Source: Escherichia coli
Lineage (GTDB): Bacteria; Pseudomonadota; Gammaproteobacteria; Enterobacterales; Enterobacteriaceae
Assembly (NCBI RefSeq): GCF_016903815.1
Contig: NZ_CP069973.1
DNA length: 64,000 nt
Direction: 5' to 3' (one strand)
In this document: in pieces, positions 12,596 through 16,846 of the stretch
Layout: each line of letters opens with the position of its first letter
How positions within the stretch are numbered: the stretch's first letter is position 1
Position numbers and translations under genes: made by a program
Notes under the pieces: model-generated
Told to the model about the DNA's origin: nothing
The model's input: only the letters and a program-made list of their open reading frames with translations
The model's database searches: none

Positions 12596-15500
12596 ATGTC
12601 ACGTTATAAAACAGGTCATAAACAACCACGATTTCGTTATTCAGTTCTGGCCCGCTGCGTGGCGTGGGCAAATATCTCTGTTCAGGTTCTTTTTCCACTC
12701 GCTGTCACCTTTACGCCAGTAATGGCAGCACGTGCGCAGCATACGGTTCAGCCACGTTTGAGCATGGAAAATACCACAGTAGCTGCTGATAATAATGTGG
12801 AGAAAAATGTCGCGTCGTTTGCCGCAAATGCCGGGACATTTTTAAGCAGTCAGCCAGATAGCGATGCGACACGTAACTTTATTACCGGAATGGCCACAGC
12901 TAAAGCTAACCAGGAAATACAGGAGTGGCTCGGGAAATATGGTACTGCGCGCGTCAAACTGAATGTCGATAAAGAATTCTCGCTGAAGGATTCTTCGCTG
13001 GAAATGCTTTATCCGATTTATGATACGCCGACAAATATGTTGTTCACTCAGGGAGCAATACATCGTACCGACGATCGTACTCAGTCAAATATTGGTTTTG
13101 GCTGGCGTCATTTTTCAGGAAATGACTGGATGGCGGGGGTGAACACCTTTATCGACCATGATTTATCCCGTAGTCATACCCGCATTGGTGTTGGTGCGGA
13201 ATACTGGCGTGATTATTTGAAATTGAGCGCCAATGGTTATATCCGGGCTTCTGGCTGGAAAAAATCGCCGGATGTTGAGGATTATCAGGAACGCCCGGCG
13301 AATGGCTGGGATATTCGTGCTGAGGGCTATTTACCCGCCTGGCCGCAGCTTGGCGCAAGCCTGATGTATGAGCAGTATTATGGCGATGAAGTCGGGCTGT
13401 TTGGCAAAGATAAACGCCAGAAAGATCCACATGCGATTACCGCTGAAGTGAATTACACGCCAGTGCCTCTTCTGACCCTGAGTGCCGGGCATAAGCAGGG
13501 CAAGAGTGGTGAGAATGACACTCGCTTTGGCTTGGAAGTTAATTATCGGATTGGCGAACCTCTGCAAAAACAACTCGATACAGACAGCATTCGCGAGCGT
13601 CGAATGCTGGCAGGCAGCCGCTATGACCTGGTTGAGCGTAATAACAACATCGTTCTTGAGTACCGCAAATCTGAAGTGATCCGTATTGCTCTGCCTGAGC
13701 GTATTGAAGGTAAGGGCGGTCAGACGGTTTCCCTGGGGCTTGTGGTCAGCAAAGCAACACACGGACTGAAAAATGTGCAGTGGGAAGCGCCGTCATTACT
13801 GGCTGAAGGTGGCAAAATTACCGGTCAGGGTAGTCAGTGGCAAGTAACGCTCCCGGCTTATCGTCCAGGCAAAGACAATTATTATGCGATTTCAGCAGTT
13901 GCCTACGATAACAAAGGCAATGCCTCGAAACGTGTGCAGACAGAAGTGGTTATTACCGGAGCTGGTATGAGCGCCGATCGCACGGCGTTAACGCTTGACG
14001 GTCAGAGCCGTATTCAAATGCTTGCTAACGGTAATGAGCAAAAGCCGCTGGTGCTGTCTCTGCGCGACGCCGAGGGTCAGCCAGTCACGGGCATGAAGGA
14101 GCAGATCAAGACTGAACTAACCTTCAAACCGGCTGGAAATATTGTGACTCGTACCCTGAAGGCCACTAAATCACAGGCACAGCCCACACTGGGTGAGTTC
14201 ACCGAAACTGAAGCAGGGGTGTACCAGTCTGTCTTTACGACCGGAACGCAGTCAGGTGAGGCAACGATTACTGTTAGCGTTGATGGCATGAGCAAAACCG
14301 TCACTGCAGAACTGCGGGCCACGATGATGGATGTGGCAAACTCCACCCTGAGCGCTAACGAGCCGTCAGGTGACGTGGTTGCTGATGGTCAGCAAGCCTA
14401 CACGCTGACGCTGACTGCGGTGGACTCCGAGGGTAATCCGGTGACGGGAGAAGCCAGCCGCCTGCGACTTGTTCCGCAAGACACTAATGGTGTTACCGTT
14501 GGTGCCATTTCGGAAATAAAACCAGGGGTTTACAGCGCCACGGTTTCTTCGACCCGTGCCGGAAACGTTGTTGTGCGCGCCTTCAGCGAGCAGTATCAGC
14601 TGGGCACATTACAACAAACGCTGAAGTTTGTTGCCGGGCCGCTTGATGCAGCACATTCGTCCATCACCCTGAATCCTGATAAACCGGTGGTCGGCGGTAC
14701 GCTTACGGCAATCTGGTCGACAAAAGATGCCAATGACAACCCTGTGACCAGCCTCACGCCGGAAGCGCCGTCATTAGCGGGTGCCGCTGCTGTTGGTTCT
14801 ACGGCATCTGGCTGGACAAATAATGGTGATGGGACGTGGACTGCGCAGATTACTCTCGGCTCTACGGCGGGTGAATTAGAAGTTATGCCGAAGCTAAATG
14901 GACAGGATGCGGCAGCAAATGCGGCAAAAGTAACCGTGGTGGCTGATGCGTTATCTTCAAACCAGTCGAAAGTCTCTGTCGCGGAAGATCACGTAAAAGC
15001 CGGCGAAAGCACAACCGTGACGTTGGTGGCGAAAGATGCACATGGCAACGCTATCAGTGGTCTTTCGTTGTCGGCAAGTTTGACGGGGACCGCCTCTGAA
15101 GGGGCGACCGTTTCCAGTTGGACCGAAAAAGGTGACGGTTCCTATGTTGCTACGTTAACTACAGGCGGAAAGACGGGCGAGCTTCGTGTCATGCCGCTCT
15201 TCAACGGCCAGCCAGCAGCCACCGAAGCCGCGCAGCTGACTGTTATTGCCGGAGAGATGTCATCAGCGAATTCTACGCTTGTTGCGGACAATAAAACTCC
15301 AACGGTTAAAACGACGACGGAACTCACCTTCACCGTGAAGGATGCGTACGGGAATCCGGTCACCGGGCTGAAGCCAGATGCACCAGTGTTTAGCGGTGCC
15401 GCCAGCACGGGGAGTGAGCGTCCTTCAGCAGGAAACTGGACAGAGAAAGGTAATGGGGTCTACGTGTCGACCTTAACGCTGGGATCTGCCGCGGGTCAGT

Positions 15501-16846
15501 TGTCTGTGATGCCGCGAGTGAACGGCCAAAATGCTGTTGCTCAGCCACTGGTGCTGAACGTTGCAGGGGACGCTTCTCAGGCTGAGATTCGTGATATGAC
15601 AGTGAAGGTTAATAACCAACTGGCTAATGGACAGTCTGCTAACCAGATAACCCTGACCGTCGTGGACAGCTATGGTAACCCGTTGCAGGGGCAAGAAGTT
15701 ACGCTGACTTTACCGCAGGGTGTGACTAGCAAGACGGGGAATACAGTAACAACCAATGCGGCAGGTAAAGCGGATATTGAGTTGATATCAACCGTTGCAG
15801 GGGAACTTGAAATCGCGGCCGCGGTGAAAAACTCTCAGAAGACGGTCACGGTGAAATTCAACGCGGATGCCAGCACCGGTCAGGCAAACCTGCAGGTTGA
15901 CACCGCCGTTCAAAAAGTGGCAAACGGCAAAGATGCCTTTACGCTGACGGCGACCGTTGAGGATAAAAACGGTAACCCTGTTCCAGGCACTCTGGTGACC
16001 TTTAATCTGCCCCGGGGTGTCAAGCCGCTTACTGGCGATAATGTCTGGGTGAAAGCCAACGATGAGGGGAAAGCAGAGTTGCAGGTGGTTTCCGTGACTG
16101 CCGGAACCTATGAGATCACGGCATCGGCAGGAAATGACCAGCCTTCGGATGCGCAGACTATAACGTTTGTGGCCGATAAGGCGACCGCAACCGTCTCCGG
16201 TATTGAGGTGATTGGCAACTATGCACTGGCGGATGGCAAAGCCAAACAGACGTATAAAGTTACGGTGACTGATGCCAATAACAACCTGTTGAAAGATAGC
16301 GAGGTGACGCTGACTGCTAGCCCGGCAAATTTAGCTCTGGATCCCGATGGGACGGCGACAACGAATGAGCAAGGACAGGCTATTTTCACCGCCACGACCA
16401 CTGTCGCAGCGACATATACACTCACGGCGAAAGTGGAACAGGCCGACGGTCAGGAATCGACGAAAACTGCCGAATCTAAATTCGTCGCGGATGATAAAAA
16501 CGCGGAGCTCGCTGCATCTCCAGAGCGTGTAGATTCTCTGGTGGCGGACGGGAAGACTACTGCAACACTGACGGTTACTCTGATGTCGGGTGTCAACCCC
16601 GTAGGAGGAACCATGTGGGTCGACATTGAGGCTCCGGAAGGGGTGACAGAGGCGGATTATCAGTTCCTGCCGTCGAAAAATGACCATTTCGCGAGCGGGA
16701 AAATCACGCGTACATTTAGTACCAACAAGCCAGGTACATACACATTCACATTCAACTCTTTGACATATGGAGGGTATGAAATGAAACCAGTGACTGTGAC
16801 AATTAACGCCGTTCCTGCAGATACTGAAGGTGCTGAGGAGAAATAA
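12596..16846 (+). CDS. eaeH: Intimin/invasin-like outer-membrane adhesin with tandem Ig-like (Big) domains (EaeH/FdeC), full length
   Basis: 1416-aa uninterrupted ORF; N-terminal beta-barrel-like region then repeated roughly 100-aa Thr/Val/Gly-rich modules (recurring WTEKGDGSYVATLT...GELRVMP..NGQ). Confidence 0.85.
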   Translation: MSRYKTGHKQPRFRYSVLARCVAWANISVQVLFPLAVTFTPVMAARAQHTVQPRLSMENTTVAADNNVEKNVASFAANAGTFLSSQPDSDATRNFITGMATAKANQEIQEWLGKYGTARVKLNVDKEFSLKDSSLEMLYPIYDTPTNMLFTQGAIHRTDDRTQSNIGFGWRHFSGNDWMAGVNTFIDHDLSRSHTRIGVGAEYWRDYLKLSANGYIRASGWKKSPDVEDYQERPANGWDIRAEGYLPAWPQLGASLMYEQYYGDEVGLFGKDKRQKDPHAITAEVNYTPVPLLTLSAGHKQGKSGENDTRFGLEVNYRIGEPLQKQLDTDSIRERRMLAGSRYDLVERNNNIVLEYRKSEVIRIALPERIEGKGGQTVSLGLVVSKATHGLKNVQWEAPSLLAEGGKITGQGSQWQVTLPAYRPGKDNYYAISAVAYDNKGNASKRVQTEVVITGAGMSADRTALTLDGQSRIQMLANGNEQKPLVLSLRDAEGQPVTGMKEQIKTELTFKPAGNIVTRTLKATKSQAQPTLGEFTETEAGVYQSVFTTGTQSGEATITVSVDGMSKTVTAELRATMMDVANSTLSANEPSGDVVADGQQAYTLTLTAVDSEGNPVTGEASRLRLVPQDTNGVTVGAISEIKPGVYSATVSSTRAGNVVVRAFSEQYQLGTLQQTLKFVAGPLDAAHSSITLNPDKPVVGGTLTAIWSTKDANDNPVTSLTPEAPSLAGAAAVGSTASGWTNNGDGTWTAQITLGSTAGELEVMPKLNGQDAAANAAKVTVVADALSSNQSKVSVAEDHVKAGESTTVTLVAKDAHGNAISGLSLSASLTGTASEGATVSSWTEKGDGSYVATLTTGGKTGELRVMPLFNGQPAATEAAQLTVIAGEMSSANSTLVADNKTPTVKTTTELTFTVKDAYGNPVTGLKPDAPVFSGAASTGSERPSAGNWTEKGNGVYVSTLTLGSAAGQLSVMPRVNGQNAVAQPLVLNVAGDASQAEIRDMTVKVNNQLANGQSANQITLTVVDSYGNPLQGQEVTLTLPQGVTSKTGNTVTTNAAGKADIELISTVAGELEIAAAVKNSQKTVTVKFNADASTGQANLQVDTAVQKVANGKDAFTLTATVEDKNGNPVPGTLVTFNLPRGVKPLTGDNVWVKANDEGKAELQVVSVTAGTYEITASAGNDQPSDAQTITFVADKATATVSGIEVIGNYALADGKAKQTYKVTVTDANNNLLKDSEVTLTASPANLALDPDGTATTNEQGQAIFTATTTVAATYTLTAKVEQADGQESTKTAESKFVADDKNAELAASPERVDSLVADGKTTATLTVTLMSGVNPVGGTMWVDIEAPEGVTEADYQFLPSKNDHFASGKITRTFSTNKPGTYTFTFNSLTYGGYEMKPVTVTINAVPADTEGAEEK

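Follow-up and report, generated by a model that had tools for sequence, protein, structure and literature searches.

The window analysed here, a 64,000-nt stretch of Escherichia coli DNA, carries at 12596..16846 on the + strand the coding sequence of fdeC (eaeH), which specifies a type Ve inverse autotransporter adhesin. Judged from its sequence, the open reading frame (ORF) is an intact copy of FdeC (EaeH), an already known and well-studied surface adhesin. We put the probability of the whole reading at roughly 90%, namely that the ORF encodes an intact, presumably functional FdeC, that the domains of its passenger are ancient and diverged, and that the gene varies among strains by substitution and allele exchange and not by repeat number. 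An earlier note on this DNA had already named the gene; that identification is right, the gene is well known, and nothing new is added here to its biology.

Identity and domain architecture

The ORF starts with ATG and runs for 1416 amino acids (aa) plus a stop, with zero internal stops in the translation. A megablast search of 5426 complete E. coli genomes gave 100% nucleotide identity to a gene of E. coli strain 7/2 (NZ_CP023820.1), which RefSeq labels "fdeC: inverse autotransporter adhesin FdeC" (WP_001521925.1). The uninterrupted frame and this identity bear out the claim of an intact 1416-aa eaeH/fdeC gene. The window and strain 7/2 are 100% identical across 20 kb around fdeC, with 1 mismatch in a further 38 kb, and the sole structural difference between them is one IS1 insertion. 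Residues 595-1008 of the product matched PDB 4E9L, the crystallised fragment of FdeC and the sole one solved, with 838 bits and ~97% identity. FdeC of the extraintestinal pathogenic E. coli (ExPEC) strain IHE3034 has 1416 aa and is 95% identical to EaeH of enterotoxigenic E. coli (ETEC) (Nesta et al. 2012, PMC3324786), and the legend of Fig. 1 in that paper describes fdeC as clustered with putative regulators, reductases and hydrolases. By the annotation of strain 7/2, the neighbours of the gene are aldo/keto reductase and LysR genes upstream and an AraC-type gene downstream, a set that matches the published fdeC cluster. Orthology to the characterised FdeC is supported on three counts, as identity is ~97% over 414 residues, the length is 1416 aa, and the locus is the same.

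The N-terminal segment (aa 1-75; 12596..12820, + strand), delimited by reading the sequence, contains a long hydrophobic stretch that resembles a signal peptide, VAWANISVQVLFPLAVTFTPVMAARA, as well as a short linker. The hydrophobic stretch probably serves as a signal peptide. No LysM match was obtained with Pfam in the protein. The inverse-autotransporter beta-barrel follows at aa 76-357 (12821..13666, + strand), where Pfam IAT_beta (PF11924) covers aa 76-350 with 369 bits against a cut-off of 22.3, and aa 113-357 match the barrel structures of invasin (4e1t) and intimin (4e1s). An intimin/invasin-like N-terminal domain had been predicted for the product, and the barrel match is in agreement with this.

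For the passenger, Pfam gave nine Invasin_D3 stretches and four Big_1 stretches. Whole-protein self-blastp was uninformative because BLAST culls matches that lie inside the self-match, and a self-iterated hidden Markov model (HMM) and pairwise domain alignments were used instead. The HMM, seeded on one repeat and iterated on its own protein, gave a period of ~100 residues over approximately aa 480-1300. The bounds of domains D0 to D9 were set from this model, and each domain was then scanned singly against the Pfam gathering scores. The membrane-proximal immunoglobulin-like (Ig-like) domain D0 (aa 358-470; 13667..14005, + strand) gave no Pfam match when scanned alone and was assigned from PDB 6tqd (intimin D00-D0), which matches aa 358-474 with an E value of 7.7e-13. 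D1-D5 (aa 471-583, 584-685, 686-787, 788-889, and 890-996; 14006..15583, + strand) are of the Invasin_D3 type, with single-domain scores of 45-55 bits against a gathering score of 33. D6-D8 (aa 997-1096, 1097-1199, and 1200-1299; 15584..16492, + strand) are of the Big_1 type and scored 63-79 bits when scanned singly (cut-off, 34.9). The terminal domain D9 (aa 1300-1416; 16493..16843, + strand) scored 29.9 bits with Invasin_D3, under the cut-off of 33, and was assigned as Ig-like from its AlphaFold model and fold matches. The model of aa 1200-1416 has a mean pLDDT (the per-residue confidence score of AlphaFold) of 85 and is all-beta, with 17 strands in two sandwiches, and its best fold matches in the PDB are intimin D0-D1 (6tpl), invasin (1cwv), and InvD (5ldy). 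The final 6 residues of the protein are predicted to be disordered. A C-type-lectin-like tip was absent from the Pfam matches, and D9 models as a plain Ig-like sandwich.

The passenger is thus a rod of ten Ig-like domains, D0-D9, without a lectin tip, the count of ten following from D1-D8 passing Pfam, D0 matching 6tqd, and D9 being modelled as Ig-like. The same number of Big domains was given for FdeC by Heinz et al. 2016 (PMC4943183), and the domain-HMM check upholds the expectation of at least nine repeats of ~100 residues. The recurring motifs on which that expectation drew are all three present (aa 740-770, 842-872, and 948-978); they are confined to D3, D4, and D5 and do not recur in every repeat.

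Repeat divergence and variation among strains

The ten domains are ancient, diverged duplicates that repeat in fold and protein profile and not in DNA. Codon-aligned DNA identity between domain pairs was 36-53%, with protein identity of 25-49%, and the longest exact direct repeat in the gene was 16 nt, near the maximum of 15 nt (mean, 12 nt) found in 50 codon shuffles. No tandem array of domain-sized period was detected, as Tandem Repeats Finder listed three trivial short arrays only, and a dedicated repeat search together with self-blastn (word size 7) returned chance-level short matches of 16 nt at best. The DNA coding for the WT..G.G...MP..NGQ motifs was 57-61% identical, with identical runs of 6-8 nt. 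Since the domain DNA is so dissimilar, homologous unequal crossing-over is not expected. The earlier note had described tandem repeats at the DNA level that would make the gene prone to recombinational length variation; the first part is contradicted by the missing domain-period array and by inter-domain identity of at most 53%, and the second by the dissimilarity of the repeats and by a length that is nearly fixed across strains.

Length was surveyed in the best 120 protein clusters at 90% identity, by their representatives. The representative measured 1413-1420 aa in 65 of these clusters. Four clusters have more than 3000 members (e.g., 3064, 3112, and 17949), with representatives of 1417-1418 aa, and most other full-length representatives fell at 1413-1420 aa. 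In a spread sample of genome matches, 25 of 27 near-full-length matches were in one piece of 4211-4251 nt; one of the remaining two had an IS3 insertion and the other a deletion. The comparison of repeat number across strains that had been proposed as a check therefore returned a near-constant length, with deletions in small clusters only.

These deletions, in-frame, internal, and 91-269 aa long, were found in 15 small clusters of 1-5 member sequences each, and they are an argument for regarding fdeC as a recombination-prone repeat locus, where DNA repeats would promote unequal crossing-over or slippage and the number of Ig-like domains would vary in a contingency-like manner. One of these clusters is P0073 (1314 aa), which is the window allele minus exactly 306 nt, or one domain, with residue 40 of D2 joined in register to residue 41 of D3. 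The existence of a 12-domain relative of 1627-1630 aa also fits such a locus. The junction of P0073, which corresponds to window 14464|14771 (4869/4870 in locus L003) and whose contig flanks both align to the window, shares only ~1 nt, however, and the deletions in the other fourteen clusters differ from one another in their end points and are mostly out of domain register. In the 12-domain form, the two additional domains are D5-like and diverged, with 39-47% identity to D5, and so do not stem from a recent duplication; they had zero megablast matches in the 5426 complete E. coli genomes. With the lack of a domain-sized array, the low identity between domains, and the uniform length of the representatives of clusters with thousands of members, the recombination-prone reading is largely refuted and was given very little weight. 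The deletion pattern instead fits sporadic illegitimate deletions, of which only those in frame are called as one protein, and not repeat-mediated crossing-over. Unequal crossing-over was also considered as the origin of the deletions themselves and was rejected, given ~1 nt of homology at the sole junction examined and the position of most deletions out of register. Several deletions begin near aa 454-458, at the D0/D1 boundary, which is a possible hotspot. In practice, fdeC should not be handled as an unstable repeat locus, and short-read assemblies of it should be reliable.

The main cluster of the 12-domain relative has 234 member sequences. This relative has a different chromosomal context (loci L004-L007 and L010-L011; fdeC at 6001-10893 or 3001-7224), with a sulfatase/radical-SAM/SbmA-like cluster on one side and an AraC-type gene and hipBA on the other, and a 10-domain fdeC of Escherichia marmotae lies in the same context. 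The rare domain-deletion forms and the 12-domain form may tune the reach of the adhesin from the cell surface, a suggestion that we hold to be weaker than that of a regulatory leader RNA considered below. A paralogue of fdeC, ~80% identical and 1414-1416 aa long, was present in loci L012, L013, and L016 (gene at 3001-7245/7251). It is preceded there by DUF4942, PerC, and MarR genes and followed by a ParA/Mrp-like gene, after which L016 has a methionyl-tRNA-synthetase-like (metG) gene. This context looks like a mobile island, and the island paralogue may explain the double fdeC matches in some genomes and 11 plasmid matches.

At least 80% of the gene was present in one place in 4585 of the 5426 complete E. 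coli genomes. Published prevalence is 67% of 126 complete genomes, 83% of the E. coli reference collection (ECOR), and 92-100% of pathotype collections (PMC6714894, PMC3324786). An intact copy is the norm for wild E. coli. The remark that an intact copy suggests a non-K-12 background is true, and it carries little information given how many genomes have the gene; intact fdeC marks the strain as ordinary wild-type, non-laboratory E. coli. The accompanying statement that the K-12 copy is a disrupted remnant was confirmed. In the K-12 strain XL1-Blue, the gene aligns over nt 1-876 only, followed by IS3, and is annotated as an incomplete barrel-domain pseudogene; fdeC is likewise reported as a pseudogene in MG1655, W3110, and DH10B (PMC3324786). 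Window 13472-17167, comprising the rest of fdeC and the 3' end of the AraC-type neighbour, is missing from XL1-Blue. Window 5812-12044 (6.2 kb), which contains genes for a flavin oxidoreductase, an alpha/beta hydrolase, two LysR regulators, and two aldo/keto reductases, is also missing from K-12. The two absent blocks indicate that the K-12 locus suffered several separate deletions and not the IS3 event alone.

Among genome records, 118 were at least 99% identical in nucleotide sequence to this allele and 3257 were at 90-95%. When 78 full-length cluster representatives were compared with the window allele, identity averaged ~98% in the barrel and D0 and 79-84% in D7-D9; most full-length representatives were 92-95% identical overall, with the lowest identity in D6-D9. 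Differences between strains arise by point substitution and allele exchange, with most of them in D6-D9. Fig. 5 of Heinz et al. 2016 (PMC4943183) had already pointed to this conserved-proximal, variable-distal pattern, and Aleksandrowicz et al. 2024 catalogued a large number of FdeC variants. FdeC is a studied vaccine antigen, and the division between conserved barrel and proximal domains and variable D6-D9 is relevant to vaccine design.

Function, upstream region and surroundings

The expected route of the protein to the surface is that of its family. The N-terminal hydrophobic segment would direct Sec export, the barrel (aa 76-357) of this copy would be inserted into the outer membrane with the beta-barrel assembly machinery (BAM) and the translocation and assembly module (TAM), and the C-terminal passenger would be threaded outward through the barrel, so that the tipless rod of ten Ig-like domains would be exposed. 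Such help from BAM and TAM was demonstrated for FdeC of strain CFT073, whose assembly TAM stimulates (Heinz et al. 2016, PMC4943183). FdeC of IHE3034 binds epithelial cells and collagens I, III, V, and VI, is induced on host-cell contact, and has a role in urinary-tract colonisation (PMC3324786). At ~97% identity over the crystallised region, the binding, induction, and colonisation properties would be expected to carry over, and we infer, by analogy with the orthologue, surface display and collagen and epithelial binding of this copy.

H-NS probably silences the gene through the AT-rich upstream region, with relief of silencing at host temperature; the title of Easton et al. 2014, a paper cited in PMC6714894, names control by both H-NS and temperature. 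The upstream intergenic region (12031..12595, + strand; 565 bp), with a G+C content of 35-38% at 12050-12650, is the presumed site of the promoter and H-NS target.

Several points weigh against an intact and functional adhesin of fixed design. A consensus scan found no consensus sigma-70 promoter on the + strand upstream of fdeC, and expression of this copy is not readable from its sequence. The function proposed here is that of orthologues, not of this strain. Deletion of fdeC in the avian pathogenic E. coli (APEC) strain IMT5155 raised adhesion (PMC11143625), and "adhesin" may therefore be the wrong word for its overall effect in some backgrounds. Domain deletions that keep the frame exist, if rarely, and the length is not absolutely fixed.

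Some of these points would also suit a gene that is in effect cryptic and silenced in this strain, with an intact ORF maintained by drift or by selection now and then, and with a product of little importance as an adhesin in most conditions. The AT-rich upstream region is typical of H-NS-silenced genes, no consensus promoter was found there, H-NS control is reported in the literature, which describes expression on host contact or temperature shift only, and several genes of the window are decaying (IS1 in an aldo/keto reductase gene, a frameshift in ykgE, and an internal stop in codA). We nevertheless consider a cryptic gene unlikely. The 4.25-kb frame is open in ~85% of complete genomes, the ~98% conservation of the barrel and proximal domains argues for purifying selection, and an fdeC mutant of an ExPEC strain was attenuated in urinary-tract infection, as stated in the discussion of PMC3324786. 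An intact, presumably functional FdeC remains the preferred reading.

The last part of the upstream region, 12485..12595 (+ strand), was delimited by RNA folding, conservation, and covariation as a structured leader with three hairpins. The leader, ~110 nt before the start codon, folds with a minimum free energy of -44.7 kcal/mol (z score of -5.98 against shuffled sequence). Hairpin 2 is followed by a U-run and is terminator-like, and the U-rich stretch UUUUCUGA (12524-12531) is able to pair with the Shine-Dalgarno region (12580-12587). Conservation of the leader in the 12-domain loci is 96%, against 73% protein-level identity over the first 75 codons, and in both chromosomal contexts the leader exceeds these codons in conservation. 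In the island-borne copies, only hairpin 3 and the ~40 nt ahead of the ATG are retained. Two covarying (compensatory) pairs occur in hairpin 3. In the covariation test of a fourU element, the anti-Shine-Dalgarno helix was conserved, had zero compensatory changes, and was broken in the island-borne paralogues. A search of the whole window with Rfam gave no match at the gathering score, and the region upstream of fdeC gave noise only. Among GTDB species representatives, the leader motif was found in three genomes only, all of them Escherichia. We suggest tentatively, with the odds well against it, that the leader at 12485-12595 acts in cis as a regulatory RNA, as a fourU-like thermometer or as an attenuator. 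If true, such an RNA could add to the induction reported for FdeC on temperature change and host contact, atop H-NS silencing.

Convergent with fdeC, an AraC-type helix-turn-helix/GyrI-like gene (ykgA-like; 16971..17828, - strand) was placed from the annotation of the identical sequence of strain 7/2. The same neighbour adjoins fdeC in L003-L007, L010, L011, L014, and L015, which makes it a conserved partner in both the reductase and the sulfatase contexts, and is not beside the island-borne paralogue. The AraC/GyrI-like neighbour may be a dedicated regulator of fdeC.

Two genes downstream of fdeC, an aldo/keto reductase gene starting at 18062 is interrupted by IS1 (18867-19634; 768 bp, with the insA and insB ORFs), recognised by its 23-bp inverted ends and a 9-bp target duplication, CGCTTGATT, at 18858-18866 and 19635-19643. 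The insertion is absent from strain 7/2, and its junction was found in 2 of the 5426 complete E. coli genomes, those of isolates 2779, described as a blood draw, and 5283, both of human origin. Inspection of the window confirmed an internal stop at codon 106 of codA (62624-63907) and a frameshift in ykgE (23767-24485); ykgL (4128-4353) is frameshifted according to the annotation of the identical sequence of strain 7/2. ARAGORN called an 81-nt tRNA-Ser(GGA) at 52272-52352 (+ strand), a position whose coordinates map to the intergenic region between yahL and yahM in strain 7/2. The element has an acceptor stem, a GGUUCGA T-loop, and a 3' CCA, with an aberrant anticodon arm (7-bp stem and 6-nt loop), and Rfam gave no tRNA match at 52272-52352 even at E values up to 10. 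From these features, it may be a degenerate tRNA-derived remnant, perhaps the scar of an old integration site.

Comparison with known systems

Intimin (EaeA) of enteropathogenic and enterohaemorrhagic E. coli (EPEC/EHEC) has an N-terminal LysM domain and lies in the locus of enterocyte effacement (LEE) island, and the invasin of Yersinia has five extracellular domains, the last of which is the integrin-binding, lectin-like D5. FdeC shares with intimin type Ve secretion, the barrel (4e1s), a D00-like first Ig domain (6tqd), and a tandem Big passenger, but the LysM domain, the lectin-like subdomain, and the LEE setting of intimin were not found in this protein or at this locus. The passenger of intimin has only four Big domains, D00-D2, by the count given in PMC7718877, and it ends in a lectin-like subdomain, D3, that binds Tir. 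With the invasin of Yersinia pseudotuberculosis (1CWV, 4E1T), FdeC shares the barrel (286 bits) and Big_1/Invasin_D3 domains; it differs in having ten Ig-like domains and no lectin-like tip, and 1cwv matches generic Big domains only, at aa 1008-1141.

An intimin or invasin proper would be receptor specific and would bind Tir or beta-1 integrin through a C-terminal lectin-like domain. In favour of such a protein, the barrel matches 4e1s and 4e1t and the NCBIfam intimin and invasin models match in part, but these matches are far under their cut-offs, at 381.8 against 1400 for intimin_all (best stretch, aa 60-466) and 313 against 710 for Ve_Inv_Crono_N (invasin N-terminal). LysM and the intimin C-terminal lectin domain are absent from the Pfam matches, the terminal domain models as a plain Ig-like sandwich, and the annotated flanking genes are metabolic and regulatory, with eae, tir, and type III secretion genes absent. 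We consider this identity extremely improbable, and an intimin or invasin proper was rejected as refuted by domain content.

Other inverse autotransporters, namely YeeJ and IatA-D of E. coli (Goh et al. 2019, PMC6714894) and Salmonella SinH, share the IAT_beta barrel and a variable number of Big domains with FdeC and differ in size (465-2934 aa) and locus; the NCBIfam IatC and SinH models gave partial matches below their cut-offs. EaeH of ETEC H10407 is the same gene under an older name. The protein encoded in the window has the same length, locus, and architecture as FdeC of ExPEC IHE3034 (ECOK1_0290; PDB 4E9L; PMC3324786) and differs from it by allelic substitutions only, roughly 13 in 414 aligned residues.

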